From: an uncultured Acidobacteriota bacterium | GTDB lineage: Bacteria > Acidobacteriota > JAQAZP01 | Assembly: GCA_963836075.1 (NCBI GenBank) | Contig: CAWIIB010000001.1 | Coordinates: 1,856,001 to 1,920,000 of the forward strand | Reading direction: 5' to 3' | DNA length: 64,000 nt | Shown: one piece after another, positions 10,368-51,017 of the stretch | How positions within the stretch are numbered: the first letter of the stretch is position 1 | How the letters are laid out: each line of letters opens with the position of its first letter | The notes under the pieces: generated by a model | What the model was told of the DNA's origin: nothing | Seen by the model: the letters and a program-made list of their open reading frames with translations, nothing else | Database searches by the model: none | Position numbers and translations under genes: made by a program

Positions 10368-10711
10368 GGAACCAGCAATCATCGGAAAAATTTCTTGATT
10401 TCTGCAATTTGTTGCCTTAAATTGAATACGCTGCCACTCAGGCACACACCACACACAACTAAACGACTGGTCGAAAACTCGCACTGATCCTGCGACAGGC
10501 CATCGATCCCGTCGATGACGGACTACGCAAACAGGATCCAGGGAGGCCGAGTCTTGCGTGGACACGTGCTGAAACTGCCTCAACCACGCCCCGGAGGGGC
10601 GGTAGTCCGTCCGGGGCGCGACACAGCAGTATGCGAACCCGCGTGAAGCTGCTTACGGTAGTACCAGTTGTCACCACATTTCATACCAAGACAAAAACAA
10701 TGAGGGAGAAA

Positions 10712-20864: not shown

Positions 20865-23150
20865 ATGTTCGACAGACCCAGCCGGCCCAGGGATGAGCAG
20901 ACCAGCACGGGCGGGATTCCGCCCGGAAACGATACGGCTCACACCGGGGACACCGTTCTGGTGGCCATCGCCGGCAACCCCAACGTGGGCAAGACCACGG
21001 TCTTCAACCAGCTCACCGGTCTGCGGCAGAAGGTGGGCAACTACCCCGGCATCACCGTCGAACGCAAGACCGGCTATCTCACCGCCGCCGATGGACGGCG
21101 GATCGAGGTGGTGGACGTTCCCGGCACTTACAATCTGCACCCCAAGGCGCTGGATGAGGAAGTGGCCTACCGCGTGCTCATCGGCGCCATCGAGGGGGGC
21201 CGCGCCCCTGACCTGGCGGTCTGCGTGGTGGACGCGGCCAACCTGGAGCGGAACCTCTACCTCGTCTGTCAGATTCTCGATCTCGGCCTGCCCACCGTGG
21301 TGGCGCTGAACATGATGGATGCGGCGGAAAACGCCGGGATGAAGATCGATGTTGACCGGTTGAGCCGCGATCTGCAGGTACCGGTAATCCCCATGGTGGC
21401 CTCCAAAGGGGTCGGGATTGCCCAGCTGAAAGACGCGGTGACCGGAACGCCTCCCCCCTGCCCGCCGCGGCGGTGGCACCTCGAGCCACAGGTGCAGCAG
21501 GAGGTGGACGCCCTGAGTGACCGCCTGGGCCGCGAGCTGACCGAGCTGACCGAGGCCCAGCGCTTTGTGGACGCGCTCCGGGCGGTGGCCCACGAAGGAG
21601 CGGCTTTCTTCGAAACGCACCATGACCAGGCCTTCTGGGATGAGGTGAAGCAGGCCCGCCAACGCCTGGAAGACGCGGGAGTGGCCTACGAGCAGGCCGG
21701 GATCAGCGGCCGCTACGCCTGGATCTCACCGCTGGTGAACAAGGTGGTCCGCCACCGCCAGGCCCCGCAGCTCACTGCCAGTGACCGGGTGGACGCGGTG
21801 ATCACCCACCGCGTGGCCGGGCCGCTGATCTTCATGCTGCTGCTGATGCTGATCTTCCAGTCGGTGTTCACCGCGGCCGTGCCGCTGATGGACGGCATCG
21901 ATTTCGGGGTCAGCGCGCTCAGCGAGTGGCTGGAGCAGGTGCTCCCCGGCGGCATGCTGACCAGCCTGCTGGTGGACGGGGTGGTGGCCGGGTTCGGGGC
22001 GGTGGTGATCTTCCTGCCCCAGATCCTGATCCTCTTCTTCTTCCTCGGACTGATGGAGGACAGCGGCTACATGGCCCGGGCCGCCTTCATCATGGACCGG
22101 TTGATGAAGCGCTTCGGGATGAGCGGCCGCTCGGTGGTGCCCCTGGTCAGTTCGTTCGCCTGCGCCGTTCCGGGGATCATGGCCACCCGGAACATCGAGA
22201 ACCACCGCGACCGGCTGGTAACCATCCTGGTGGCGCCGCTGCTCACCTGCTCGGCCCGGCTGCCAGTCTACACCCTGCTCATCGGCGCCTTCGTCCCCCA
22301 GGCCTACTTCCTCGGTGTCTTCGGCTACCAGGGCACGGTGCTGCTGGGCCTCTACCTGATGGGCATCCTTTTCGCCGTGCTGGCCGGCGCCATCCTGCGC
22401 CGCTTCGTGATCCGGGGCAAACAATCGCCGTTCATCATCGAGCTGCCGCCCTACCGGGCACCCCGCCTCCGCGACGTCCTCTACCAGATGGTGGAACGGG
22501 CCTGGCTCTTTGTCACCCGCGCCGGGGCGATCATCATCTCCATCAGCATCGTCCTCTGGTTCCTGGCCAGCTTCCCCGACGCGGGCAGCAAGCCGGGGCT
22601 GGAAGCGGCGCGGGACGAACTTCTGGCAGCCCACCAGGCATCCATCGCCACAGCCGCCAGCCCCGGAGCGGAGACGGAACTGGCCGCGGCACTGTCGGCG
22701 CTGGACGGGGAGCAGGCCCGCTACCGGGTGGCCCACAGCTACATCGGCCGCATGGGGCGGCTCATCGAACCGCTGATCGCCCCGCTGGGTTTCGACTGGA
22801 AGATCGGCGTGGCCCTGATCTCCAGTTTCGCCGCCCGGGAGGTGGCGGTGAGCGCCCTGGGCACCATCTACAGCATCCAGGACGCGGACGAGGGCAGCGA
22901 GAGCCTGCGTGAAAGGATCCGCAACGACGTCAACCCGCGCACCGGCAAGCCGGTCTTCACCCCACTGGTGGCCTACAGCCTGATGGTTTTCTACGTGCTG
23001 GCCTGCCTCTGCATGAGCACCCTGGCCATCGTCAAGCGGGAGACCAACAGCTGGCGCTGGCCGCTGTTCATGCTCGGCTACATGACCGTGCTGGCCTATG
23101 TCGCCTCGCTGATCACCTACCAGGGCGGCCGGCTGCTGGGATGGGGCTGA
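20865..23150 (+). CDS. feoB: Ferrous iron transport protein B
   Basis: GNPNVGKT, VGNYPGITVE, DVPGTY, LNMMD, LMEDSGYMARAAF, FIIELPPY, FAAREV. Confidence 0.97.
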   Translation: MFDRPSRPRDEQTSTGGIPPGNDTAHTGDTVLVAIAGNPNVGKTTVFNQLTGLRQKVGNYPGITVERKTGYLTAADGRRIEVVDVPGTYNLHPKALDEEVAYRVLIGAIEGGRAPDLAVCVVDAANLERNLYLVCQILDLGLPTVVALNMMDAAENAGMKIDVDRLSRDLQVPVIPMVASKGVGIAQLKDAVTGTPPPCPPRRWHLEPQVQQEVDALSDRLGRELTELTEAQRFVDALRAVAHEGAAFFETHHDQAFWDEVKQARQRLEDAGVAYEQAGISGRYAWISPLVNKVVRHRQAPQLTASDRVDAVITHRVAGPLIFMLLLMLIFQSVFTAAVPLMDGIDFGVSALSEWLEQVLPGGMLTSLLVDGVVAGFGAVVIFLPQILILFFFLGLMEDSGYMARAAFIMDRLMKRFGMSGRSVVPLVSSFACAVPGIMATRNIENHRDRLVTILVAPLLTCSARLPVYTLLIGAFVPQAYFLGVFGYQGTVLLGLYLMGILFAVLAGAILRRFVIRGKQSPFIIELPPYRAPRLRDVLYQMVERAWLFVTRAGAIIISISIVLWFLASFPDAGSKPGLEAARDELLAAHQASIATAASPGAETELAAALSALDGEQARYRVAHSYIGRMGRLIEPLIAPLGFDWKIGVALISSFAAREVAVSALGTIYSIQDADEGSESLRERIRNDVNPRTGKPVFTPLVAYSLMVFYVLACLCMSTLAIVKRETNSWRWPLFMLGYMTVLAYVASLITYQGGRLLGWG

Positions 23151-24997: not shown

Positions 24998-25199
24998 TTT
25001 CAAGTCCTGACCAGAGCCGCCTGACCCTGTCCTCATTACCGCCGGCATGGCGAATCCTGTCCGGAATTTTTTAACCGAAAAATTCCATTGACAGCATATA
25101 ATATCGACAGTTAATATAGACTATAAGCTGGTGGTCTATCTCACTAGCGAAGTTGCGCCTGGTGCGTCTTCGTTACATCGTCACGGGAATGTTCGAACA

Positions 25200-25859
25200 A
25201 TGATCAGTTCAGCCGCCCTGGATATCATCGCCGGCCAATATGAAGTTATCGGAAATTTGCCGCGGACAGCCCTGGATTCGCTGAGAGCAGAGGCCCGGAC
25301 ATTCCAGGCGTCGGCAGGCACCCGGATGTTCGAGGTGGGTGATCCCTGCCAGGGTTTCCCCCTGCTCATCGAGGGTGAGATACAGGTGGAGCGCATGTCA
25401 GCCAGCGGACGCCGGATTCTCCTGTACACACTGGCGCCGGGAGACAGTTGTATCCTCAGCGTCAGCAGCCTGTTGGGCCAGGGCAGATACCCGGCCAGCG
25501 GCATCGTCTCCGCCGATGCTGTGGGCGCAACCATCCCGCGCCCGGAATTTATCCGTCTCCTGGAGAAAGAGGAGCTTTTTCGAACCTATGTCTTCCGGTT
25601 TTTCTCGGAGCGGATCACCAGCCTGATGTCGCTCATCGAAGACCTCGCCTGCCACAAGATCGGTCATCGGCTGGGGCGCATCCTCGCCGACGGCCCCGCA
25701 AAACTGGAGATGACTCACCAGGACCTGGCCAGCAGGCTAGGCACGATCCGCGAAGTGATCAGCCGCAACCTGAAAGAATTCGAAGATAAAGGATGGATCA
25801 AACTCGGCCGTGGCCGAATTGAAATCATCGACGCCGCCATGCTCAAAAAAAATCGATGA
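25200..25859 (+). CDS. Crp/Fnr family transcriptional regulator
   Basis: cNMP-like domain (G.I.V.R.S.SGR.I.LY.L.PG.SC) and HTH MTHQDLASRLGTIREVISRNL. Start uncertain. Confidence 0.92.
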   Translation: MISSAALDIIAGQYEVIGNLPRTALDSLRAEARTFQASAGTRMFEVGDPCQGFPLLIEGEIQVERMSASGRRILLYTLAPGDSCILSVSSLLGQGRYPASGIVSADAVGATIPRPEFIRLLEKEELFRTYVFRFFSERITSLMSLIEDLACHKIGHRLGRILADGPAKLEMTHQDLASRLGTIREVISRNLKEFEDKGWIKLGRGRIEIIDAAMLKKNR

Positions 25860-38377: not shown

Positions 38378-38671
38378 CGTCCGCCCCTCTGCCCCGCACT
38401 TCAGACCCGGAGGGCCTGCGCTCATCTCTGACGGGAGTTGGATCTGGATCAGGGATGTGTCCTGTGACGAGCAATCAGTGTACCGGGCAATTCCGGCCCG
38501 CGTCAACCCGCAGGGAACCCGGCGCCCCGGAGGTCGGACTTGCCCGATGAAATGTTCCGCTATACAGTTCCCACAGGCTATACTGCAAAAATCCTCAAGA
38601 ACGTAAACCAGCGGCCCCGGCAGGCCGATGAGGGAGATGTGGCCACAGGAGAGGGAGCAGGGACACTACGC

Positions 38672-39819
38672 ATGCAGCGGACAGCATTCTCAACAGCAGC
38701 GCCGGCATTCAGACCGGGGACGGTCATTCTGCTGGCCGCCCTCCTGATCCTCGCCGCCGCCATGGTCGGCCCCGCAGCCCTGGCTGACAACGTCACCTGT
38801 TCGGCCTGCGGCAAGAAGATCCGCGGCGACTACCTGGTCATGGACGGTGACCCGTACTGCAGCCAGTCCTGCCTCGACACGGTGCTCCCCGGCTGCGCGG
38901 TGTGTGGAGAGGTGATCAGGGGAGCCCACCTGACCCTGAACGGCAAGCGTTACTGCAGCCAGAACTGCCTGGACCGGGACCTGCCGGCCTGCGACATGTG
39001 CGGCCGGCCGGTGCGGGGCGACTACTTCCAGAGCAAGGGCAAAACCTATTGCAGCGAAGCCTGCTACACCCTCTCGCTGCCCCGCTGCGAGGCCTGCGCG
39101 GAACCGATGAAAGAGTGGCTGGATATCGAGGGCCGGCACTACTGCCACTCCTGCGCCAGCAGACAGCGCTGCAGTACCCTGCGGCCACCCCGGCCCCACC
39201 ATCAGCCTGGGGGATGGGCGGCGGATCTGCGACAGGTGCCGGGATACGGCGGTGATGGAACAGACCGACGGGGAACAGCTCTTTGATCTGGTCCGCAGGC
39301 GGATGGACCGCACCCTCGACCTTTCCACCGAGCACGAGATCGAGTTCCACCTGGTGAGCCGCGACGACCTGGAGCGGATCAGCAACGGTTCCTCCAGCGG
39401 ACGGGAACTGGGCTATTACCAGTATCAGGCCGAGACAACAACCACCTACCTCACCACCCGTGATCGCAACGGCCGCGAAAAAAAACGGGTGGCCGGCGAG
39501 CGGACCGACAGGAAGTTCCGCATCTACATCCTTTACGGGTTGCCCGAGAAGCGGCTGATGGAGGTGGCGGCCCACGAACTGGCCCACGACTGGATGCGGG
39601 TCAATCTGCCGCGAGATCAAGGCCCCGATCTTCGAGGAGGGATTTGCCGAATACGTCGCCTGGCTGGTCAACGATTGTTTCGGCCACGAGGAGTTGAAGA
39701 AGCGGATCGAGGAGAACAGTGACCCGATTTACGGCGACGGGTTCAAGATGATGAAGGGCCTGGCCGACCGGCACGGCGGCCTCGACGGACTGATCGACTA
39801 CCTCGCCGACCTCCCCTGA
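38672..39819 (+). pseudogene. Secreted DA1-like zinc metallopeptidase with LIM-like Zn-finger repeats; two +1 frameshifts (~39178, ~39612)
   Basis: Signal peptide ending ALA; four CxxC...YC repeats. Corrected reading gives CSTCGHP...LGDGRRICDRC..AV, AHELAH, EEGFAEY, YGDGF, 381 aa in total. Confidence 0.8.
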
Positions 39820-39976
39820 GCATACCGATTCGTGGCCCCCGCCGGCTGCAGCCCGGTTTTCCGTTGTCAAGCTTGTATTCCACTATCCCGATATTTAATA
39901 TGCTGTATATTGGGTTAAGGATTGGTCCATTCACCTGTAAAGTAACGAGGGTTTCCCTTCAACAGGCTCGTCACCC

Positions 39977-41281
39977 ATGCTGGAAACGGTCATCTACGCG
40001 GCGACGGCGGCGACGGTCATCGGCATCCCCGCCGTCTACATCTTCCTCGAGATGCGGAAGGCCCGCCTGGCCAGGGAGATGTGGCAGGCCGCCGAGACCC
40101 GGGGGCTCACCGAACCGGTGAACCTGCACCCGGTGATCGACCCGGCCCGCTGTATCGGCACCGCCGCCTGTGTCCCGGCCTGCCCCGAGGGTGAAATTCT
40201 CGGGGTCCTCGACGGCCGTGCCAAACTGGTTTCGCCGAGCAAGTGCATCGGCCACGGGGCCTGCGAGGCGTCCTGCCCGGTGGGGGCCATCACCCTGGTC
40301 TTCGGCACGGAGCGCCGCGGGGTGGACATCCCCTATGTCAAGGAGACCTTCGAGACCAACGTGGAGGGAATCTACATCGCCGGCGAACTGGGAGGCATGG
40401 GGTTGATCCGCAACGCGGTGACCCAGGGGCGGGAGGCGATGGACTACATCTGCCGCTCGCTCGACGGCAGCCAGCCCGGGGTCCACGACGTGGCCGTGGT
40501 GGGCGCCGGACCGGCCGGTCTCTCGGCCAGTCTCCAGGCCCGTTCCGCCCGTCTGGACAGCATCACCCTCGATCAGGATGACATCGGCGGAACCATCCTC
40601 AGCTACCCGCGCCAGAAACTGGTGATGACCCGGCCGATGGAGGTGCCGCTCTACGGCACGGTGAAGGTCAGGGAAATCCTCAAGGAGGACCTGCTCGACC
40701 TGTGGAACGAGATCATCACCCGGACCGGACTGGAGATCCGCACCAAAGAGCGGGTGGAGACGGTGGTCAGGACCAACGGCTGCTTCAAGGTCGTCTCCCC
40801 CAACGGAGAGTACCTGGCCCAGCGCGTGCTGCTGGCCATCGGGCGCCGGGGCACCCCGCGAAAGCTCGGCGTCCCAGGCGAGTTGTCAGCCAAGGTGGCC
40901 TACCGGCTGCTGGAACCGGAGCAGTATCGCGGGAATGATATCCTGGTGGTGGGCGGCGGGGACAGCGCGGTTGAGGCCGCCCTTTCACTCTCCGGGCAGC
41001 AGGGGTGCCGGGTCACCCTTTCCTACCGAAAAAACGTTTTCGGCCGGATCAAGGAGAAGAACGAGAACCGGATCAGCGAAGCCATCGAGAATGGCCGGGT
41101 GCGGGTACTCTTCGAATCGGTGGTCACCGAAATCCGTGACCGGGAAGTCGTGCTGGTGCAGGACGGGAAACAAATGACCGTGATCAACGACTTCGTCTTT
41201 GTTTTTATCGGCGGTGTTCTGCCCACCAACTTCCTCCAGGGGATGGGCATCAGCATTGAACGGAAATTCGGCACGAGGTAA
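39977..41281 (+). CDS. Membrane-anchored ferredoxin-fused thioredoxin-reductase-like NAD(P)H flavoprotein
   Basis: N-terminal TM; CIGTAACVPACP and CIGHGACEASCP FeS motifs; VVGAGPAG (FAD); VVGGGDSA...LSYRK (NADPH type); no TrxB active-site CxxC seen. Confidence 0.88.
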   Translation: MLETVIYAATAATVIGIPAVYIFLEMRKARLAREMWQAAETRGLTEPVNLHPVIDPARCIGTAACVPACPEGEILGVLDGRAKLVSPSKCIGHGACEASCPVGAITLVFGTERRGVDIPYVKETFETNVEGIYIAGELGGMGLIRNAVTQGREAMDYICRSLDGSQPGVHDVAVVGAGPAGLSASLQARSARLDSITLDQDDIGGTILSYPRQKLVMTRPMEVPLYGTVKVREILKEDLLDLWNEIITRTGLEIRTKERVETVVRTNGCFKVVSPNGEYLAQRVLLAIGRRGTPRKLGVPGELSAKVAYRLLEPEQYRGNDILVVGGGDSAVEAALSLSGQQGCRVTLSYRKNVFGRIKEKNENRISEAIENGRVRVLFESVVTEIRDREVVLVQDGKQMTVINDFVFVFIGGVLPTNFLQGMGISIERKFGTR

Positions 41282-41282
41282 C

Positions 41283-42149
41283 GTGAAGATTCACCGCACA
41301 CTGCTTGTCCTGCTCTACGTTTCGGGGATTCTGCTAGCCGCGGCGCTGGCGGTGGACGGGCTGGACTACTACCGGACACCACTGGCCGAACGTCCGCACA
41401 TGGCCCGGCACGCCGAACTGAAGCCGGGTGGAATCATCGGCCACGGGCTGGGGATCCTGGGCAGCGGTCTGATCCTGCTGCTCTTCCTCTATTCGCTGCG
41501 CCGGCGGAATCTCCTCGGGCTGCGCTTCGGCGATATCGGCCAGTGGCTGAACATTCATATCCTCTTCGGTATCATGGGGCCGATATTCGTCACCCTGCAC
41601 ACCTGTTTCAAATTCGGCGGAATCGTCTCGGTAAGCTTTTATTCCATGGTGGCGGTGGCGGCCAGCGGGTTCATCGGCCGCTACCTCTATGTCCAGATTC
41701 CCCGCACCATCTCCGGGGATGAATTGACCTTGATAGAGATGGAAGAGAAGAGCCGCGAAATGGGACTGCTGCTGGAGGAATACGGCATGGATGAACAGCT
41801 TCTCGCCGAAGTGCGTGCCGTATCCGGAGCGAGGCCCAGGCGGCGAAACGCGTTGACGGTGATCCCGGCGATCATTTTCAATGACCTGGCCCGGCCGTTC
41901 AGGCGCTACGGGTTGAAAAAGCGGCTCCGCAGCCAGGCAGCAGCCCTGACTGGAGAGGATTCAGGGAAACTGATGAGAATCATCGACCGCCACTCGCTGC
42001 TGGTGCGGAAAATCGAAATGCTCTCCTCGGTCCAGCGGCTGTTTCACCTCTGGCACGTGGTGCACAAACCGTTCGCCACGGTGATGATCCTGATCATGAT
42101 GGTCCACGTGACCGTGGCCATACTCTTCGGTTACCGGTGGATTTTCTGA
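41283..42149 (+). CDS. Integral membrane protein, putative di-heme cytochrome b (ferric-reductase-TM-like)
   Basis: GTG start 1 nt after the upstream stop; ~5 TM segments; two His pairs 14 residues apart (NIH...TLH; VVH...MVH). Confidence 0.75.
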   Translation: MKIHRTLLVLLYVSGILLAAALAVDGLDYYRTPLAERPHMARHAELKPGGIIGHGLGILGSGLILLLFLYSLRRRNLLGLRFGDIGQWLNIHILFGIMGPIFVTLHTCFKFGGIVSVSFYSMVAVAASGFIGRYLYVQIPRTISGDELTLIEMEEKSREMGLLLEEYGMDEQLLAEVRAVSGARPRRRNALTVIPAIIFNDLARPFRRYGLKKRLRSQAAALTGEDSGKLMRIIDRHSLLVRKIEMLSSVQRLFHLWHVVHKPFATVMILIMMVHVTVAILFGYRWIF

Positions 42150-43891
42150 TGGGATTGGGATACCTGGCAACCCGCACGATCCACGGCCTGGCCGCAGCGC
42201 TGCTGATGGCCGTCGTCACCGTTCCGGTCCCGGCCCAGTTGTCGCCGGGAGACCTGGCCCGGCCCCACGCCGATCTGGAGGGCATGGCCAGCTGCATCTC
42301 CTGCCACAAACTCGGCGAAGGGCCCAGCGACCGGCTCTGTCTCGACTGCCACGCCGAAATCGACGAGCGGCTGAAGAGCCGCCGGGGCTACCACCACCGG
42401 CTGATGCAGGACCGGGAGAACAGCTGCCCGAAATGTCACAGCGACCACAACGGCCGCGAGTTCGAACTGATTCACTGGCCGGAGAGCGAGGAGCGGTTCG
42501 ACCACGCGCTCACCGGATACCAGTTCGAAGGCGCCCACACCGCGTTGAAGTGCCGCCAGTGCCACCAGCCGAAATACATCGCCCGCGACCTCCGGATCCT
42601 CCGGCCGGATGTGAACCTCGAGCGGACCTTCCTCGGCCTGGGCACCCGCTGCCTCCACTGCCACGAGGACCGGCACGGGGAGCAGCTGACCGACGACTGC
42701 ACGCGCTGCCACGACCAGCAGCAGTGGAAGCCGGCCCGGTTCTTCGACCACGAGCTGGCCGGGTACCGCCTCACCGGCCTCCACCAGCAGGTGGCCTGCA
42801 AGAAGTGCCACCCGGCAATACCCGGGGAGGCTGAGATGGACGGACAGCCGGCCCTCCGCTACACCGGCATCTCCTTCGGCGCCTGCACCGACTGCCACCG
42901 GGACGAGGTCCACAAGGGCCGCCTGGGCACCCGCTGCGAGGAATGCCACCAGACCGGCGGCTGGCGTCAGCCAGTGGGCGACCGAGAGCGTTTCGATCAC
43001 TCGAAAACCGTCTATCCCCTTGAGGGGCGGCACGCCGTGGTGGAGTGCCGCAAGTGCCACAAAGGACCGAAGTACACAACGCCGCTGCGTCACGGCGCCT
43101 GCGCCGACTGCCACCAGGACACGCACCAGGGCCAGTTCGCCAAGCGGGCCGACGGCGGCCGCTGCGAGAGCTGTCACGACCTGAACGGCTTCCTTCCCGC
43201 GAAATTCGACCTGCCCGAGCACCAGTTGGGCCCCTACCCGCTCACCGGGGCGCACACCGCACTGCCCTGCAGCGACTGCCACCAGCTGGAGGCGCTGCGA
43301 GGTACCGAACCTGTGCGGCGTTTCCGCATGGCTGACAGCGCATGCCAGGACTGCCACAGGGACGAGCACCGGGGGCAGTTCCCGCCCCGTCTGGGCGAAC
43401 CGTGGTGCGAGACATGCCACACCACATCGACCTGGAAGGGGGTGCAGATCGACCATGGCCTGACCCGTTTCCCGCTGGAAGCAAGCCACGGTCAGGTGGC
43501 CTGCGCCAAGTGCCACCCGCGGGTGGACGAGGGCGCCGAGAACGAGCACACCCGCTACCGGCCCCTGGAGCTGACCTGCGTCGGCTGCCACACCGACATT
43601 CACCGGGGCCAGTTCGCGGTTGGCGAAACGCCGAAAGACTGCATCACGTGCCACGCACCAGAAACCTGGAAAAAGATCACCTTCGATCACGACCGCGATT
43701 CACGGTTCTCACTCAGAGGGGCTCACGAAAGGGTACCCTGCGCCAGTTGTCACTCTCTGGAAAATGCCGGCGGCGATGGGGATGACTTTGTCCGCTACCG
43801 CCCCTTGAAAAGCGGCTGTGCCGACTGCCACCGTGGCAGTCTCGGATCCCTTGATCTCACCACTGAAGAATCCGCGCGGCCCCGACCATGA
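42137..43891 (+). CDS. Periplasmic multiheme cytochrome c, 20 CxxCH
   Basis: Signal peptide then QLSPGDLARPH; 20 CxxCH motifs counted by hand in FDH...L.G.H tri-heme repeats. Confidence 0.93.
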   Translation: MDFLMGLGYLATRTIHGLAAALLMAVVTVPVPAQLSPGDLARPHADLEGMASCISCHKLGEGPSDRLCLDCHAEIDERLKSRRGYHHRLMQDRENSCPKCHSDHNGREFELIHWPESEERFDHALTGYQFEGAHTALKCRQCHQPKYIARDLRILRPDVNLERTFLGLGTRCLHCHEDRHGEQLTDDCTRCHDQQQWKPARFFDHELAGYRLTGLHQQVACKKCHPAIPGEAEMDGQPALRYTGISFGACTDCHRDEVHKGRLGTRCEECHQTGGWRQPVGDRERFDHSKTVYPLEGRHAVVECRKCHKGPKYTTPLRHGACADCHQDTHQGQFAKRADGGRCESCHDLNGFLPAKFDLPEHQLGPYPLTGAHTALPCSDCHQLEALRGTEPVRRFRMADSACQDCHRDEHRGQFPPRLGEPWCETCHTTSTWKGVQIDHGLTRFPLEASHGQVACAKCHPRVDEGAENEHTRYRPLELTCVGCHTDIHRGQFAVGETPKDCITCHAPETWKKITFDHDRDSRFSLRGAHERVPCASCHSLENAGGDGDDFVRYRPLKSGCADCHRGSLGSLDLTTEESARPRP

Positions 43892-44206
43892 ACTTCCTAG
43901 CGAAACCCAATAACCGCCTTGTTCTGTAGATCATACGCATAATCGTCACCGACGAAATCGTCACCGAATTACAATATTGAAAGTGCCCCACCAGCAAAAC
44001 GCCAACAGGGTGATTGTTCACCGGTCAACGAAATGACATTTCACTTTTAATCAATTCATTCAAAACAACTTGCCTGATACTGCACGGGGGCGCTGGAGAG
44101 CCGTCATCATGGTATGAATCTTGTATCCTATTAGACTGATAATCACTGTGGTATATGTAGGATTCAACTGATACCCATTTGATGTGAACTGGTGAAGGAG
44201 ATCATC

Positions 44207-46957
44207 TTGACCATATATCCGGGCCGTCAGATTTTGCAGAATCACGACGAACGGTCACCCTCCGGGACGGTGGGGCGGGATCGCAGGCTGCAGGACAACC
44301 CCTGGCTGCGCACTGCCCTCTTCCTGGTCCTGTTCGCAGCCCTCTTCTTTCTCACCACCGGGATGACCGGGGAAGACGACTTCCCCCACGGCGAGTTCGA
44401 CGGGGACTGCTCACTCTGCCATACCGACGAAGCCTGGGTCCCGGCGGTAATCTCACCCGAGTTCGACCATGACGAGGCATCCGGATTCACCCGGCGCGGG
44501 GCGCACCTCGACCTGCGCTGTCAGGCCTGCCACAAGAGTCTCAATTTCGCCGAAGCGCCCCGGGAGTGCGCCGGCTGCCACGAGGACGTGCACCTGGGCG
44601 AACTGGGCTCGGACTGCGGCCGTTGCCACAACCCGGAGAGCTTCATCGACCACGGTTCCTGGCTGAGGGCACACAATTCGACCCGCATGCCGCTCACCGG
44701 CCGCCACCTCACCGCCGACTGCGAAGAATGTCACCTGCCCCAGCCCCAGGGAAGACTGAAATGGGTCAACCTGCCGGTGGACTGTTATGCCTGTCACCGG
44801 GAAGAGTACCAGGGCACCAGCAATCCGAACCACGCCGACTCGGGCTTTGACACCGGGTGCGATCAGTGCCACACCACCGCCGCCTGGTTCCCGGCCTACT
44901 TCAGCCACAACTCTTCGGGCTTCCCGCTCACCGGCGGGCACGCCGGGTTGGACTGCGAGGACTGTCACGTCGGCGGCAACTACGAGAACACGCCCAGCGA
45001 CTGTTACGCCTGCCACCAGGACGACTACGACCGAACCGACGACCCGGACCACCGGGCCGCCGGTTACTCCACCGACTGCACCCAGTGCCACACCACCAGC
45101 GACTGGAGCGGGGCGGTGGACCACACCTCATTCCCGCTCACCGGGGGGCACGGCGGCCTCGACTGCAACGACTGCCACGCCGACGGCGTCTACCAGGGAA
45201 CGCCCACCGACTGCTTCGCCTGCCACCAGGACGACTACAACCGGGAGCACGCCGGCAGCGGCTTCCCCACCGACTGCACCCAGTGCCACTCCACCAGCGA
45301 CTGGGAGGGAGCCACCGACCACTCGGCCTTCCCGCTCACCGGGGCTCACGGCACGCTGGACTGTGACGCCTGTCACGGCGACGGGGTCTACGAAGGGACG
45401 CCCACCGACTGCTACGCCTGTCACCGGGATGACTACGATAATACCGACGACCCGGATCACCAGGCAGCGGGCTACCCCACCGACTGCACCCAGTGCCACT
45501 CCACCTCCAACTGGGACGCCGAGGACGCGCACACCAGCTTCCCGCTCACCGGCGGCCACGGCGGCCTCGACTGCAACGATTGTCACGCCAACGGCGTGTA
45601 CCAGGGGACGCCCACCGACTGCTACGCCTGCCACCAGGACGACTACAATGAGGAGCACGCGGGCAGCGGCTTCCCCACCGACTGCACCCAGTGCCACACC
45701 ACCGCTAACTGGGAGGGAGCCACCGACCACTCGGCCTTCCCGCTCACCGGGGCCCACGGCACACTGGACTGCGACGCCTGTCACGCCAACGGCGTGTATG
45801 AGGGGACACCCACCGACTGCTGGTCCTGCCACCAGGACGACTACAACGGCGAGCACGCCGGCAGCGGCTTCTCCCACGACTGTACCGAGTGTCACAGCAC
45901 CAGCAACTGGGACGCCGATCTCGACCACACCAGCTGGCCGCTCACCGGCGCCCACGCCGCGGTGGACTGCAGCCTCTGCCACATCGACGGGGTCTACGAA
46001 GGCACGCCCACCGACTGCTGGTCCTGTCACAGCAGCGAATACAACCAGGAACACAGCGGCAGCGGCTTCCCCCACGACTGTTCCATCTGTCACAGCACCA
46101 CCAACTGGGATGCGGAGGATGCCCACACCAGCTGGCCGCTCACCGGCGGCCACGGCGGTCTCGACTGCAACGACTGCCACGCCGGCGGGGTCTACGAGGG
46201 CACGCCCACCGACTGCTGGTCCTGTCACGAGGACGACTACAACGACGAGCATGCCGGCAGCGGATTTCCCCACGACTGCACCGAGTGTCACTCCACCACC
46301 GACTGGGACGCCGACTTCGCCCACACCAGCTGGGCGCTCAACGGGGCCCACGCATCGGTGGCCTGCAACGACTGCCACGAGAACGGGGTCTACGAGGGAA
46401 CACCCACCGACTGCTACGACTGCCACACCTCGGACTTCACCGGCGAGCACGGAGGGGACGGCTATCCCCACGACTGCCTGCTCTGCCATGACGAGAACAA
46501 CTGGGACTCCGACTACGACCACAACAGCTTCTGGCCGCTCACCGGCGCCCACCGTTTCGCCAACTGCACCGAGTGCCACATCGGCGGGGTGTATGCGGGG
46601 ACGCCGACACTCTGTTACGACTGCCACCGGGAGGAGTACGAGGACGAGCACTCCAGCAGTACGCCGCGCCAGTGCGAGGAGTGCCACAGCACCAGCGACT
46701 GGGACGACGACAGCCCCCGAACGGCCATCGCCGACCACGACGCCCTGTTCCCCATCCGCTCCGGCCGGCACCGCAACCTCTGGTTCTCCTGCCAGGACTG
46801 TCACCCCAACAAGAAGAACCCGGCTGTCTTCACCTGCGCCGGCTGCCACTCCCCCGGCGACCACCCGGCGTCAGGGCTGAAAAAGGCGAGCCCCGCCCCC
46901 TCTGTCTTCAGGAGGGCTGACCGGGACTGCCTGGTCTGTCATCCGAGGGGGGACTGA
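44207..46957 (+). CDS. Giant multiheme cytochrome c, 37 CxxCH
   Basis: 37 CxxCH counted by hand; N-terminal hydrophobic segment; AAGGAG RBS before TTG 44207 (alternative GTG 44192). Confidence 0.93.
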   Translation: MTIYPGRQILQNHDERSPSGTVGRDRRLQDNPWLRTALFLVLFAALFFLTTGMTGEDDFPHGEFDGDCSLCHTDEAWVPAVISPEFDHDEASGFTRRGAHLDLRCQACHKSLNFAEAPRECAGCHEDVHLGELGSDCGRCHNPESFIDHGSWLRAHNSTRMPLTGRHLTADCEECHLPQPQGRLKWVNLPVDCYACHREEYQGTSNPNHADSGFDTGCDQCHTTAAWFPAYFSHNSSGFPLTGGHAGLDCEDCHVGGNYENTPSDCYACHQDDYDRTDDPDHRAAGYSTDCTQCHTTSDWSGAVDHTSFPLTGGHGGLDCNDCHADGVYQGTPTDCFACHQDDYNREHAGSGFPTDCTQCHSTSDWEGATDHSAFPLTGAHGTLDCDACHGDGVYEGTPTDCYACHRDDYDNTDDPDHQAAGYPTDCTQCHSTSNWDAEDAHTSFPLTGGHGGLDCNDCHANGVYQGTPTDCYACHQDDYNEEHAGSGFPTDCTQCHTTANWEGATDHSAFPLTGAHGTLDCDACHANGVYEGTPTDCWSCHQDDYNGEHAGSGFSHDCTECHSTSNWDADLDHTSWPLTGAHAAVDCSLCHIDGVYEGTPTDCWSCHSSEYNQEHSGSGFPHDCSICHSTTNWDAEDAHTSWPLTGGHGGLDCNDCHAGGVYEGTPTDCWSCHEDDYNDEHAGSGFPHDCTECHSTTDWDADFAHTSWALNGAHASVACNDCHENGVYEGTPTDCYDCHTSDFTGEHGGDGYPHDCLLCHDENNWDSDYDHNSFWPLTGAHRFANCTECHIGGVYAGTPTLCYDCHREEYEDEHSSSTPRQCEECHSTSDWDDDSPRTAIADHDALFPIRSGRHRNLWFSCQDCHPNKKNPAVFTCAGCHSPGDHPASGLKKASPAPSVFRRADRDCLVCHPRGD
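44900..46710 (+). repeat. Nine tandem ~200-nt intragenic repeats encoding tri-heme modules
   Basis: Recurrent CCGCTCACCGG(C/G)G...CCCACCGACTGC...GACTGCACC(C/G)AGTG(C/T)CAC DNA units. Confidence 0.9.
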
Positions 46958-46959
46958 AG

Positions 46960-48600
46960 ATGAACTGCAGAACCCTTCTCGTGATGTCGATTCTAGTGGC
47001 CCTGGCCGCCGCGGTTCCCGCCGCGGGTCAGGACGGAGAGCAGGCCACCTGTGAGATCACCTATCTCACCGGCAGCTCGGTCTACATCAACGCCGGCAGC
47101 GAGGACGGTCTCCGTCCCGGCGACCTGGTGGAGCTGGTCACCGCGGGAGAGGTGGTGCTGGTGCTCCGGGTGCGGGACGTCTCCAGCCGCAAGTCGGCCT
47201 GTATCCCCCAGGACCAGGATCTGAATCTGACCGGGCTGGTCAATGTGGGGGATACCATTCGCTACACCAGACGGGCGCCGCAGCCGCCGGCGGCCGCGGC
47301 CGTCACCGTGGAATCCGAAGCGGAGACCGCGGTGCTGACCGAGCAGACCGAGCCCGCACCGGCAACGAAAACCTCCGGCGAGCGAAGCCTGTTCGGCGGT
47401 CTGCGGGGCCGGGTGGGCCTGGCCTACCTGCTGGTCAACGACCGGGAGAACGACAGCGGCGGCTTTGACCGGCCGGCCATCACCCTGCGTCTGGACGGCG
47501 AGCACCTCGGCGATTCAGCCTTCAGCATCCACGTGGACACCCGGCTGCGGCGCACCACCAGCAACAGCAACAACGAGGCGGTGGCCAGCAACCGGATTTA
47601 CCGCTTCTCCGCCGAGTGGCAACGCCGGGGCTCGCCCTACCGGCTCTCCCTGGGCCGGCAGTATTCCCCGGGGCTGTCCGGGCTGAGCCTTCTCGACGGC
47701 CTGCTGGCCGAACGGCGCACCGACCGCTGGGCCTTTGGCATCTTTGCCGGGACCCAGCCGGATTACGAGGACTACAGCTTCTCCACGGACACCACCCAGT
47801 ACGGCATCTACGCCCAGCGCACCAGCTACCTCGACGCCGGGAAGAGCTGGGACGTGACCGCCGGCCTCTCCGCCAGCTACGGCAAGGGGGAGGACTTCCG
47901 CGAGTTCTTCTATCTCCAGGCCAACTACTTCACCCGGCGCTGGACCCTCTCGCTCAACCAGGAGGTGGACTTCAACCGCGACTGGAAGTCGGACGCCGGG
48001 GAGAGCACCGTCCAGCCCACGGCCACCTTCGCCATCGCCCGCTACCGGGTGAGCGACTACCTGACGCTCAACGCCGGCTACGACGACCGGCGCAACGTGA
48101 TCCTCTACCGCGAGTTCGAGAACCCGGAAACCGAGTTCGACGACGACAACCGGCAGGGGCTGTGGGGCGGGGCCGACGTGAACTTCCTCCAGCGCTTCCG
48201 TGCCGGGGTCAACTACCGCGGCAACAGCGGCGGGGACAACGGCACCTCCGACTCCTACACCCTGACCCTCGGGGCGCGGGACCTCTTCCCCTTCCACCTC
48301 GACATCGGGGCCCGCTCCACCCGGTTCGAGAACGACACCATGGAGGGCTGGCTGAACTCGCTGAACCTCTACCTGCCGCTGGGCCGGCGCACGCAGTTCT
48401 CGGTCTACGGCGGGCTGCGCCAGGACGAGTACGTCGAGGCGCTCAGCCCGGACCTGGTCAGCCAGGACCTGTTCTGGTACGGCGCGGAGATGAACCTCCG
48501 CTTTGGCAAGTCGTGGTTCTTCCTCATTTCACTGGAGAGGAATTCGGGGGACGTGGAGGATTTCGACCAGCTCTACACCATGCTCAGCTACCGCTTCTGA
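46960..48600 (+). CDS. Putative outer-membrane beta-barrel (porin) with small N-terminal soluble domain
   Basis: Signal peptide; VYINAGS.DGL..GD domain; Ala/Pro/Thr linker; amphipathic aromatic-rich strands ending LSYRF; starts 2 nt after the 37-heme gene stop. Confidence 0.8.
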   Translation: MNCRTLLVMSILVALAAAVPAAGQDGEQATCEITYLTGSSVYINAGSEDGLRPGDLVELVTAGEVVLVLRVRDVSSRKSACIPQDQDLNLTGLVNVGDTIRYTRRAPQPPAAAAVTVESEAETAVLTEQTEPAPATKTSGERSLFGGLRGRVGLAYLLVNDRENDSGGFDRPAITLRLDGEHLGDSAFSIHVDTRLRRTTSNSNNEAVASNRIYRFSAEWQRRGSPYRLSLGRQYSPGLSGLSLLDGLLAERRTDRWAFGIFAGTQPDYEDYSFSTDTTQYGIYAQRTSYLDAGKSWDVTAGLSASYGKGEDFREFFYLQANYFTRRWTLSLNQEVDFNRDWKSDAGESTVQPTATFAIARYRVSDYLTLNAGYDDRRNVILYREFENPETEFDDDNRQGLWGGADVNFLQRFRAGVNYRGNSGGDNGTSDSYTLTLGARDLFPFHLDIGARSTRFENDTMEGWLNSLNLYLPLGRRTQFSVYGGLRQDEYVEALSPDLVSQDLFWYGAEMNLRFGKSWFFLISLERNSGDVEDFDQLYTMLSYRF

Positions 48601-48608
48601 GGCGCGGG

Positions 48609-51017
48609 TCAGAACCCTCCCGCCGCCACGTTGACCCCGTAGGTCCAGCCGGCAGGGAAAGCTTCCAGGGAAAACGACTGGATCACATCTGATCCGTCGT
48701 AGCGGTAGACCTTGACCGGCGACCCGGTTGACGGGTCCGGCCCGGGGCCCACCACCAGGTCATCCCGCCCGTCACCGTCCAGGTCGGCCATGGCGCAGAC
48801 CTTCGCCCCGTACTGCACCTGGCTCGGCGGCCAGGCAAAGAAGTTGAACCCGTCCAACTGGACCACCGCCACCCCGTCGTAATTCCAGCCCCGGACATGG
48901 GCCCCGAAGGCCGGCCCCGGCCCCGCGCCGCTGATCAGCTCGTCCATTCCGTCACCGTCCATGTCGCCGCAACTGACGTTCACGCCGAACTCGTTGCTGC
49001 CGTATGCAAAGAAACTCACTGCCGGGATGGCCTCGGCCGGCCCGCCGTCCACGTTCCAGCCCCGCACGTGGGGACCGAAGATCCTGCCGGGTCCGGCGCC
49101 GGTGACGATTTCGTCGTACCCGTCGCCGTCGATATCGCCGGCAGCCACATTCACCCCCCACTGGCTGGTGCCGTAAGCGAAGAAGTTGACCCACGGCGAG
49201 GGCGCCACGCTGCCGCCGCTGCCGTACTGGATCAGGTCAAAGGCGCGGACGTGGGGGCCGAACACGCGGCCCGGCCCGGCGCCGGTGATCAGTTCGCAGG
49301 TCCCGTCGTGGTCGATGTCGCCGGCACAGATGTTCACCCCGTAGCGCAGAGTGCCGTAGGCAAAGAAATTAAGTCCGGGCACGGGCAGGCCGTCCGTGGT
49401 GAACCCGCGCACCTGGGGCCCGTAGATCTCACCCGGCCCGGCGCCGGTGAGCAGCTCGTCGCGGTGATTGCCGTCCACGTCGCCGCAGCAGACGTTCACC
49501 CCGTAGCTCGGTGCTCCATAGGCGATGATCTCGTGAGTGTGCGCGGCGTCCTGCTGCGGAGGGAAGAGTCGCACCAGGGGCGGGTTGGTGAGCCCCGGAC
49601 CGGGCCCGGCCGCCAGGGCGGGAGTGGTGATCGGTGACGATTCGCCCTTGTACAGGGCACTGTAGTGCCGGGTCAGGTTGATGAACTGGTCGTTGTACTC
49701 GCTGGAGTCACAGACATCGGTCCCCTCGTAGAACTCGTTCCAGGTCTCGATGGCGATCATCGGCGCGCCCGAGGCGATGGCCGCCTCCCAGCTCTCGCGG
49801 TAGTAGCGGCCGCCCTCACGGTCGCGATAGGAGGGCGGGTAACGCACCGAAGAGTCATCGTACCCCGGCCCCACGGCAGCGGTGTGCAGCAGCTGCGGCC
49901 CGTTCAGCGCCGCACCCCAGCGGTAGCGGCTGTCGGTGACCACGTTCCAGCTGTCCTCCCGAATGATGTATGGGGCCACACCGAACTGCAGCGTGAACTG
50001 GTCCTTGAGGCAGTCGATGGACCACTGGTTGTAGTTGCCGGCAAAGTGGCTGCCGTAGAACTGGATCACCGGCCGGCCGTCCACAGTGGCCCGCAATTCG
50101 TACGGCACCATGTCAAAGAAGTCCCGCACGGTCCTCCAGAAATAGCCGTGCTCCTCGGTGGTGGTGATGTCCAGGCCGGGGTTGAGGCCCGCCTCGTACG
50201 AGTCATCCACCGACTGCAGCATGCCGGCTCGCGAACCGCCCCCGTCGAGATAGCTCATCCAGTAGAGCAGCCCCGCGCTGTCCGGCGCCCGGCCAAGGAT
50301 CAGCTGGAAGGTGTCGTTGACGTATTCCTCGTCGTCGACGATCAGGCTGCCGTATTCCGCGGAGGCGAGAACCGTGTCGATCATCCCCCGCCGTGTGCCG
50401 CCCCCGGCCAGGACATCCACCCACTGCTGCAGCTCGAAGAGATCGGGCTGGCGGTTGAGCAGCACCGTGTAGCAGCGGATGATAAAGTGGCCGTCCAACA
50501 GGAAAAGGGCTGCCCGGTAGCTGCAGTGCCGGTAGTCGTGCTGGTCGTAGTCGTAGGTCAACGGGTTCATGGTCAGGGTGACCGTGTCGTAGAACATTCC
50601 GATCTTTGGCGGGGTCTCGCCCTGGGCCGCCAGTTGCTGCGCGGCCTGCACCAGCAGCTCCAGCCCCTGGTTGCTCCAGTAGTTGTAGCGGGCAGCGGTG
50701 TGCGGAAAGCCCCAGTAGACAGGCAGCACCACATCAACACCGGCCTCGCTCATCCGGCGCAGGTTGAAGGTGTACCAGGGCAGTGATTTCCACCACAGGG
50801 GGGTGCCGGCGGGGAGCCAGGGGTGGTCGGACATCTCGCCTGGGTCTTCGTGATACCAGTAGAAAAAGTAGGTGGTGACGAGTTTGTCGTCCAGCGGGAC
50901 CGTGCCGGTTTCCGCCGCGGCGGATGCCGTGGCGCTGTTCCCGGCGGCGAAAAGCAGCCCGAGCAGCAGCACGATTCCGAAGGACGTGATCCGCTTAGCC
51001 AACCAATTGTTCCTCAT
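48609..51017 (-). CDS. Secreted DUF5010/GH99-like glycosidase with inserted DUF4214-like repeats and a C-terminal FG-GAP-like propeller
   Basis: TTYFFYWY, AGVDVVLPVYWG, KIGMFYDT, VGPGYDDS, ETWNEFYEGT; L.R.PD...W repeats; GD.DGDG.DE..TGAGPG..FGPHVR repeats. Confidence 0.8.
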   Translation of the reverse strand: MRNNWLAKRITSFGIVLLLGLLFAAGNSATASAAAETGTVPLDDKLVTTYFFYWYHEDPGEMSDHPWLPAGTPLWWKSLPWYTFNLRRMSEAGVDVVLPVYWGFPHTAARYNYWSNQGLELLVQAAQQLAAQGETPPKIGMFYDTVTLTMNPLTYDYDQHDYRHCSYRAALFLLDGHFIIRCYTVLLNRQPDLFELQQWVDVLAGGGTRRGMIDTVLASAEYGSLIVDDEEYVNDTFQLILGRAPDSAGLLYWMSYLDGGGSRAGMLQSVDDSYEAGLNPGLDITTTEEHGYFWRTVRDFFDMVPYELRATVDGRPVIQFYGSHFAGNYNQWSIDCLKDQFTLQFGVAPYIIREDSWNVVTDSRYRWGAALNGPQLLHTAAVGPGYDDSSVRYPPSYRDREGGRYYRESWEAAIASGAPMIAIETWNEFYEGTDVCDSSEYNDQFINLTRHYSALYKGESSPITTPALAAGPGPGLTNPPLVRLFPPQQDAAHTHEIIAYGAPSYGVNVCCGDVDGNHRDELLTGAGPGEIYGPQVRGFTTDGLPVPGLNFFAYGTLRYGVNICAGDIDHDGTCELITGAGPGRVFGPHVRAFDLIQYGSGGSVAPSPWVNFFAYGTSQWGVNVAAGDIDGDGYDEIVTGAGPGRIFGPHVRGWNVDGGPAEAIPAVSFFAYGSNEFGVNVSCGDMDGDGMDELISGAGPGPAFGAHVRGWNYDGVAVVQLDGFNFFAWPPSQVQYGAKVCAMADLDGDGRDDLVVGPGPDPSTGSPVKVYRYDGSDVIQSFSLEAFPAGWTYGVNVAAGGF

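Follow-up and report, generated by a model that had tools for sequence, protein, structure and literature searches.

A conserved NAD(P)H flavoprotein beside a PCC3-type multihaem cytochrome cluster: a candidate quinone-independent route for electrons to the cell exterior

To our knowledge, every characterised Gram-negative outer-membrane electron conduit draws from the quinone pool. Could such a wire also be fed directly from cytoplasmic NAD(P)H? This question is raised by a cluster of five genes, here called g1 to g5, in the genome of an uncultured Acidobacteriota bacterium (JAQAZP01). The cluster lies at positions 39977-48600 of the DNA that we analysed, hereafter the window, a stretch of 64,000 nucleotides (nt) corresponding to positions 1,856,001-1,920,000 of contig CAWIIB010000001.1 (assembly GCA_963836075.1). 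The reading that we favour, and consider reasonably probable on the sequence evidence set out below, is that the five products form a trans-envelope conduit that exports electrons from cytoplasmic NAD(P)H outward, independently of quinones.

All five genes lie on the + strand, in two tightly coupled groups (Table 1), just as a preliminary description made from this DNA alone had them; that description proved correct at every sequence feature checked. Translation of g2 starts at a GTG at 41283, one base past the g1 stop, and an identical 288-amino-acid (aa) product is present in a protein collection. The 5' end of g3 overlaps the 3' end of g2 by 13 nt, and after a 300-nt gap the second group follows, in which g5 begins 2 nt past the g4 stop.

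Table 1. Coordinates of the cluster and its principal features, numbered from the first letter of the window
Feature	Position	Strand	Description
g1	39977..41281	+	434 aa; membrane-anchored ferredoxin + thioredoxin-reductase-like (YpdA-like) FAD/NAD(P)H flavoprotein
g1 transmembrane anchor	39989..40045	+	aa 5-23, hydropathy peak 1.92
g1 Fe-S motif 1	40151..40186	+	CIGTAACVPACP, aa 59-70, second Cys replaced by Thr (Thr62)
g1 Fe-S motif 2	40244..40279	+	CIGHGACEASCP, aa 90-101, second Cys replaced by His (His93)
g1 'GD'-type FAD motif	40352-40396	+	ETNVxGIYIAGELGG, aa 126-140, N-terminal of GxGxxG
g1 FAD-binding GxGxxG	40502..40519	+	aa 176-181; G176, G178, P179 and G181 invariant in 29 sequences
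g1 NAD(P)H-binding GGGDSA	40952..40969	+	aa 326-331, then conserved SYRK...R
g2	41283..42149	+	288 aa; PCC3-type inner-membrane protein, putative di-haem b cytochrome, five transmembrane helices
g2 TM3 motif	41544..41600	+	W88-x3-H92-x13-H106; W88, H92 and H106 invariant in 21 sequences
g2 TM5 motif	42051..42107	+	W257-x3-H261-x13-H275; W257, H258 and H275 invariant, H261 in 20/21
g3	42137..43891	+	exported 20-haem cytochrome c, presumed periplasmic wire
g3-g4 gap	43892..44191	.	300 nt, AT-rich
g4	44192..46957	+	37-haem cytochrome c, tri-haem c7-type repeats, presumed outer/extracellular wire
g4 tandem DNA repeats	44915..46552	+	198-nt unit = 66 aa = 3 haems, about 7 copies
g5	46960..48600	+	outer-membrane protein: signal peptide, small beta domain, linker, 22-strand barrel (modelled)

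The preliminary description had staked its reading on the genes occurring together elsewhere, and they do so across many phyla. A g2 profile, run against one genome per species, picked out a first set of 80 loci, whose g2 relatives belong to records of KSB1, Calditrichota, Zixibacteria, Gemmatimonadota, Acidobacteriota, Ignavibacteria, Eisenbacteria, Krumholzibacteriia, Nitrospirae and Nitrospinota. All five genes are present at 40 of the 80 loci, 22 times as g1-g2-g3-g4-g5 and 18 times as g2-g3-g4-g5-g1, a recurrence far beyond chance; contig ends truncate most of the remaining loci. The flavoprotein gene g1 is present at 65 loci, and at 14 of the 15 that lack it the contig runs out short of the expected g1 position. 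Within the window's own phylum, 50 of 401 sampled genomes encode a g2 homologue; a second sample of 20 loci, picked from those 50 genomes for low similarity (26-43% identity to g2), has g1 at 17 and adds two further orders, g3-g4-g5-g2-g1 and g2-g1-g3-g4-g5. The shuffled gene order spans at least eight phyla, and the fact that the set is kept together through repeated reshuffling is our strongest evidence for a joint function of the five products. Pairwise distances point the same way, with g1 and g2 giving the best correlation of six gene pairs across 41 sequences (r 0.865, the others 0.68-0.77), which we count as weak support because the sequences are interrelated.

What each product might contribute is suggested by its sequence, beginning with g1. 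The protein matches Pyr_redox_3 (E 2.3e-44) and Fer4_10 (E 4.9e-10), and it contains no CxxC anywhere along its length, in agreement with the earlier account of two ferredoxin-type motifs fused to a TrxB-like FAD/NADPH module without a visible CxxC. Around the anchor helix the mean number of Lys and Arg residues in 29 homologues is 0 before and 5.5 after, which places the catalytic part on the cytoplasmic side. The ferredoxin part is not a complete 2x[4Fe-4S] domain, which would have eight Cys in two CxxCxxCxxxCP motifs; one Cys in each is replaced, by Thr62 and His93, as previously noticed, yet the Fer4 models still match. Among 79 pattern-matched homologues, the second-Cys position of motif 1 is most often Cys (35) or Thr (28) and otherwise Ala (9), Ser (4), Ile (2) or Val (1); within the first 80 loci, Cys is found there only where g1 is the last gene. 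The His of motif 2 is far more constant, being present in 64 of 64 first-set homologues and in 77 of 79 pattern matches overall, with Ala at this position in two further sequences (L088 and L089). In nearly all members of the family one cluster would be His-ligated (or a 3Fe cluster), and in the window's clade the second cluster would have only three Cys. A His-ligated cluster at a protein exit site is known from [NiFe] hydrogenases.

The remainder of g1 is a two-Rossmann flavoprotein. Residues G326, G327, G328, S330, A331 and R351 are invariant in the 29 homologues, and from the motifs of thioredoxin reductases (TrxRs) we take the enzyme to prefer NADPH. It scores about half of the YpdA/Bdr equivalog cut-off (TIGR04018; 170.1 against 339.9 bits) and about a quarter of that for thioredoxin reductase (TIGR01292; 88.3 against 343.45 bits). 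The closest solved chains are the YpdA/Bdr structures 7a76 (E 7.4e-31) and 7a7b (E 1.3e-26), followed by thioredoxin reductases and TrxR-type ferredoxin-NADP+ reductases (FNRs), the FNRs 3ab1 and 3lzw matching at about 1e-11. With these relatives g1 shares a two-Rossmann FAD/NAD(P)H fold without a redox-active CxxC, but it adds a transmembrane anchor, a di-cluster ferredoxin domain and a displaced 'GD' motif. In thioredoxin reductases this motif lies near the C-terminus, and positions 295-336 of the NCBIfam model SthA align with g1 residues 121-161; because the motif of g1 precedes the first Rossmann motif rather than being C-terminal, the protein looks like a circular permutation.

The probable partner of g1 in the membrane is g2. 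The hydropathy profile has five hydrophobic segments, of which the last was scored in two windows that overlap, and together with loop charges it indicates an N-in/C-out topology, with a basic, helical insert of 118 residues (aa ~137-254) facing the cytoplasm. The two H-x13-H pairs reported earlier are indeed present, as H92/H106 and H261/H275, and their conservation, on which the preliminary reading also hung, is nearly complete in the aligned relatives. The same hydropathy and charge evidence would put one His of each pair close to either side of the membrane, H92 and H261 at the inner face and H106 and H275 at the outer one, as is to be expected if a pair of haems b is stacked between them. 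Matches to haem-b families are weak, with 23.8 bits against DUF4405 (PF14358; cut-off 26.7) and 13.6 bits against Ferric_reduct (PF01794; cut-off 28); at E<=0.01, 13 of 21 g2 relatives match DUF4405, six match Ferric_reduct and one matches Ni_hydr_CYTB. With the g2 model as query, Foldseek found nothing in the PDB at E<=0.001, and a wide VIA search listed only generic helical bundles, the best being an ABC-transporter domain (Z 9.8); no ferric reductase domain (FRD) chain appeared among the matches listed. Because the model is weak, these fold searches say nothing about the fold. A profile search of the sequences of solved structures gave a best E of 0.067, over the cytoplasmic insert.

The g2 family is large: 2,083 of the 8,000 candidates that were scored are hits, and at E<=0.001 it takes in 3,751 cluster representatives (clusters at 50% identity). 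No fused forms of g1 and g2 were found among longer proteins, which is weak evidence given the type of search. Among five long g2 representatives, two have a partial membrane protein joined to a cytochrome c and one has it joined to a Pyr_redox_3 fragment; these look like merged or truncated gene calls and are not counted as fusions. In the protein Atlas g2 matched only clusters without a name, apart from one auto-named 'pyridine nucleotide-disulfide oxidoreductase', a label that was probably carried over from the adjoining gene.

Taken with g3, g4 and g5, this membrane protein has a published counterpart. He, Barco, Emerson and Roden (2017; PMC5566968) describe PCC3 clusters of four parts: a porin, one cytochrome outside the cell with a median of 34 haems, another in the periplasm with a median of 21, and a membrane protein of ~300 aa with five helices, SGxxG on the fourth transmembrane helix (TM4) and Wx3Hx13H on TM3 and TM5. 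The membrane protein encoded here shows all of these features, with SGxxG at S128-G-x-x-G132 on TM4; g3 has 20 haems for ~21, g4 is repeat-rich with 37 for a median of 34, and g5, modelled as a 22-strand barrel, adjoins them. By this feature description g2-g5 fit a PCC3-type cluster. That paper already likens the Hx13H pairs to FRD and NADPH oxidase (NOX) domains, and proposes that the membrane protein is a quinone-active cytochrome b serving electron uptake (PMC5566968). Later papers describe PCC3 as four genes and state that its function is untested (PMC9900912; 10.1101/2025.02.27.639646). The earlier statement that no experimental characterisation is known stands for the function, but the g2-g5 arrangement and its FRD/NOX likeness were already in print. 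The cluster differs from the published ones, which are proteobacterial, are described with four genes and are modelled as feeding the quinone pool from outside, in its fifth gene, an NAD(P)H Fe-S flavoprotein conserved with the set in other phyla. Searches of the open-access PMC and bioRxiv literature turned up no account of a PCC3-type cluster that includes an NAD(P)H flavoprotein, and the supplements of He et al. 2017 mention no oxidoreductase, FAD, ferredoxin or 4Fe-4S.

A second line of comparison comes from plasmids. A translated search with g2 matched 14 plasmid records, one from Emticicia and 13 proteobacterial. Among Proteobacteria it reached only short relatives in three-gene modules and returned no PCC3 sequence. 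The cultured Bacteroidota strain Emticicia oligotrophica DSM 17448 carries a full set on plasmid pEMTOL02 (NC_018749.1, 8824-20622; L082), in the order ccsA (1028 aa), g2, g1, two cytochromes with 23 and then 40 haems, and a gene of about the size of g5 (538 aa). The proteobacterial records encode a short g2 homologue, which in the five inspected of the 13 matched (Methylophaga, Alteromonas, Qipengyuania, Acetobacter and Legionella; L083-L087) keeps Hx13H on TM3, SGxxG on TM4 and Wx3Hx13H on TM5. At all five the gene before it, to which it is translationally coupled, has the annotation '2Fe-2S cluster-binding protein', and the gene after it encodes a cytochrome c with 7 haems; these three-gene modules lie inside copper/heavy-metal resistance islands. 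The upstream proteins of Methylophaga and Alteromonas, the two that were scanned, consist of FAD_binding_6, NAD_binding_1 and Fer2 domains; both also have an extra exported Met/His-rich N-terminal segment and a transmembrane helix.

Two unrelated NAD(P)H-flavin-Fe-S proteins thus stand beside the same membrane family, a coincidence difficult to account for unless proteins of the g2 family trade electrons with an NAD(P)H-linked donor in the cytoplasm. The suggestion of a split NOX-like module in the preliminary description gains support on these comparative grounds, from a non-homologous FNR-type NAD(P)H/2Fe-2S partner on proteobacterial plasmids. More tentatively, and at a little under even confidence, we propose that the PCC3-type membrane protein may lie at the heart of a 'split NADPH oxidase' widespread among bacteria, a two-haem transmembrane relay to which no fewer than two unrelated cytoplasmic NAD(P)H Fe-S flavoproteins (TrxR-type with 4Fe-4S, FNR-type with 2Fe-2S) have been recruited, and of which the five-gene form would be a quinone-independent, membrane-potential-assisted NAD(P)H:extracellular-acceptor oxidoreductase. 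The PCC3 core is known, and the new elements are the NAD(P)H flavoprotein conserved with it and, in parallel, the pairing with an FNR-type flavoprotein.

A motif count bears out the exported cytochromes with 20 and 37 CxxCH motifs noted at the outset. g3 matches Cytochrome_C7 (E 9.4e-25) and has a signal-like segment at aa 15-33; against the MtrA/DmsE decahaem family (TIGR03508) it scores 58.2 bits for a cut-off of 192.2, over its C-terminal third only (E 8.5e-16). g4 matches Cytochrome_C7 in 10 stretches (E 1.6e-41), and TRF reports a repeat of period 198 in 6.8 copies with 76% matches, plus overlapping arrays. Its start is uncertain, and an alternative GTG at 44270 would make a hydrophobic segment N-terminal. 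Homologues of g3 have 17, 20 or 23 haems and those of g4 from 10 to 62, and a near-fixed count in one and a wide range in the other fit a fixed periplasmic span with a variable outer part. Particularly large cytochromes occur in related clusters at two loci: an open reading frame (ORF) of 1993 aa with 62 CxxCH at L098 (G312:C4, 11848-17829), and one of 1589 aa with 60 CxxCH at L106 (G388:C2, 10104-14873), where the cluster lacks g1 within 9.5 kb.

Whether g5 is a barrel at all had been singled out as decisive for the preliminary reading, which described a beta-barrel ending in Phe. The sequence ends in SYRF, with Phe last, and an AlphaFold model from a 30-sequence alignment (predicted local distance difference test score, pLDDT, 81.4) has 22 strands over aa 148-545, preceded by a small beta domain (aa 27-104) and a disordered linker (aa 109-144). 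Foldseek returned 337 matches at E<=0.001, with outer-membrane barrels throughout the matches listed, and re-alignment with VIA ranked 22-strand TonB-dependent transporter barrels first, the best match being the SusC barrel 5t3r_D (Z 19.6, root-mean-square deviation 3.6 A, 359 aligned residues). Barrels with 22 strands are normally filled by a plug; the one of g5 could hold part of a cytochrome.

These features both connect the cluster to known electron-transfer systems and set it apart from them. Like MtrCAB of Shewanella and Pcc/Ext of Geobacter, it combines a porin with periplasm-facing and outward-facing multihaem cytochromes to span the outer membrane, and the C-terminal part of g3 weakly resembles the DmsE/MtrA decahaem proteins. 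Those conduits, however, have ~10 haems per protein and a different barrel, that of MtrB having 26 strands, and they are fed by the quinol oxidases CymA, ImcH and CbcL. With NADPH oxidases and FRD proteins (PF01794) the likeness lies in the proposed path, in which electrons from NAD(P)H pass a flavin, cross the membrane over a pair of stacked haems b that His residues of TM3 and TM5 ligate, and leave to a trans-side acceptor; MsrQ-Fre is a split system with the same NAD(P)H-flavin-haem b logic. g2 differs in having five helices, a large cytoplasmic insert and no fused FNR-type FAD/NADPH domain, the dehydrogenase being a separate TrxR-fold protein with two Fe-S clusters; the acceptor, moreover, would be a cytochrome wire rather than O2 or MsrP. 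Among small membrane cytochromes b, haem b binding has been shown for one DUF4405 protein and for FezC (PMC11334425). In DUF4405, FezC and PepSY-like proteins, too, four central His are the most conserved residues, but g2 accompanies multihaem cytochromes c and an NAD(P)H flavoprotein rather than ApbE-flavinylated partners. We do not equate the cluster with the extracellular electron transfer clusters EET1 and EET2 of Acidobacteriota, for which the available text of a peat preprint gives 8-13-haem cytochromes and mentions no flavoprotein.

The mechanism that we envisage runs as follows. With an inner-membrane anchor and a cytoplasmic catalytic part, g1 would oxidise NAD(P)H at FAD and pass single electrons through two Fe-S clusters, one of them His-ligated or 3Fe and the other, in this clade, lacking a fourth Cys. 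Electrons would enter g2 at the cytoplasm-side haem b (H92/H261), move to the periplasm-side haem b (H106/H275) and continue through the 20-haem periplasmic g3 to the 37-haem g4, held in or at the 22-strand barrel g5. Fe or Mn oxides, humic matter or a partner cell may be the final extracellular acceptor. At about -320 mV, NAD(P)H lies well below likely acceptors, and the membrane potential favours an outward-moving electron. Since such a flow pumps no protons, it would serve as a redox-balancing sink or a route to low-potential acceptors rather than as energy-conserving respiration. The genes, their motifs with the conservation of these, the modelled barrel fold and the kept linkage of the five genes are observed; from them we infer cofactor binding, NAD(P)H use, the contact between g1 and g2, quinone independence and direction.

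Several observations weigh against this mechanism. The matches of g2 to haem-b families fall below Pfam cut-offs, and its AlphaFold model is mediocre (pLDDT 70.6). A route that conserves no energy makes the wide distribution of the cluster harder to explain. Not every locus has the flavoprotein: in the first set, L038 (JAJRVW010000064.1) alone has room on both sides yet lacks g1, its g2 homologue standing alone, and of the three second-sample loci without g1, L100 reaches a contig end, and L101 and L106 have room on both sides. Published proteobacterial PCC3 clusters are likewise described, in the text available, as four genes with no flavoprotein (PMC5566968; PMC9900912; 10.1101/2025.02.27.639646). 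These g1-less variants and four-gene clusters mean that g2 can have another electron partner, possibly quinone. An alternative built on this point holds that g2 is a quinone-active cytochrome b, that the wire works on the quinone pool and that g1 is an accessory, which might regulate, repair or act as an NAD(P)H:quinone-type feeder. One g2 relative matches Ni_hydr_CYTB, a quinone-reactive family, and the related haem-b protein MsrQ was reportedly found of late to hold ubiquinone; a role of this kind is also the published hypothesis for the PCC3 membrane protein (PMC5566968). We nevertheless regard a quinone-linked g2 as rather unlikely, for g1 stays coupled to g2 or in the same cluster through several changes of gene order, next to distant g2 homologues its place is filled by an NAD(P)H Fe-S flavoprotein of unrelated origin, and the conserved cluster His of g1 has the look of a point where electrons leave for a partner protein.

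Direction is a separate matter. Fe(II), a mineral, a cathode or a partner cell might be the source, with electrons travelling inward through g4/g5, g3 and g2 to g1, which would then reduce NAD(P)+ and supply reducing power without reverse electron transport. TrxR-type FNRs, which are reversible enzymes, are among the solved relatives of g1, so the flavoprotein speaks in part for such a path. Reduction of NAD(P)+ (about -320 mV) from Fe(II)-type donors would, however, be uphill and against the membrane potential. PCC3 was discovered in Fe(II) oxidisers and modelled as an uptake route in Fe(II) oxidation, and in the iron-oxidising Sideroxydans CL21 the inner-membrane gene of PCC3 copy 2 is significantly up-regulated; both facts count against an outward wire (PMC5566968; 10.1101/2025.02.27.639646). 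These iron-oxidiser clusters are nonetheless described there without a flavoprotein, and the flavoprotein-bearing loci come from lineages that are not known as iron oxidisers; an inward wire here seems to us quite improbable. Somewhat different again is the idea that g1 and g2 supply a periplasmic reductant for some end besides respiration or redox balance, such as holding the large cytochromes or their haem iron in the reduced state while they mature, or detoxification of metals or oxidants at the cell surface. The setting of the three-gene proteobacterial version in copper/heavy-metal resistance islands suggests it, as does the position of the Emticicia cluster directly after the cytochrome c biogenesis gene ccsA, and MsrQ with Fre gives a precedent for a cytoplasmic flavin reductase that feeds a haem-b protein for periplasmic repair. 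A 57-haem wire with a dedicated 22-strand barrel would far exceed such a need, and haem and Fe-S carriers transfer electrons, not thiol-disulfide equivalents, which leaves this idea highly improbable in our view. Outward export from NAD(P)H remains the reading that we prefer.

Some loci show the membrane module in other company. At L038 (9980-13011), the g2 homologue occurs without g1, g3, g4 and g5; after it comes a gene for a protein that has DUF5666 repeats and a Por secretion tail. At L101 (G025:C1:22500-42300), one ORF of 689 aa on the - strand (9495-11564) encodes both a Ser/Thr protein kinase domain (Pkinase, E 2.4e-51) and a five-helix domain resembling g2. It is flanked by cytochromes with 8 and 33 haems, g1 is absent, and the product may be a kinase that senses redox state through this membrane module.

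Around the cluster itself, the neighbouring genes have no relation to it: upstream lie glycosyltransferases of the cell envelope and a LIM/DA1-like pair, downstream an FG-GAP protein. The first protein of the pair (38540-39286, + strand), directly upstream of the cluster, repeats a LIM-like zinc-finger motif (PF00412, E 2.3e-7), and the second (39252-39722, + strand) is a short DA1-like peptidase fragment (PF12315, E 5.8e-8), a combination of domains better known from plants. A FeoB ferrous-iron transporter (20865-23147, + strand) and a Crp/Fnr-type regulator (25131-25859, + strand) lie 15-19 kb upstream. Rfam gave zero matches across 39300-49000. The gap between g3 and g4 probably contains a second promoter or regulatory region; a scan for sigma-70 promoters and terminators was uninformative, with three promoter-like sites against 1.1 expected and none inside the gap.

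If the outward reading is correct, an NAD(P)H-wired route would couple metabolism to minerals, humic matter, electrodes and partner cells in a different way, and it would reverse the usual role given to PCC3, that of iron oxidation. Should the split-oxidase proposal also hold, fermentative and sediment bacteria of many phyla could dump electrons on minerals, humics or partner cells, and their reach would include acceptors too low in potential for quinol-fed conduits. The cultured carrier Emticicia oligotrophica DSM 17448 opens the question to ordinary genetics and biochemistry, and a positive answer would change how 'electroactive' potential is read from genomes.

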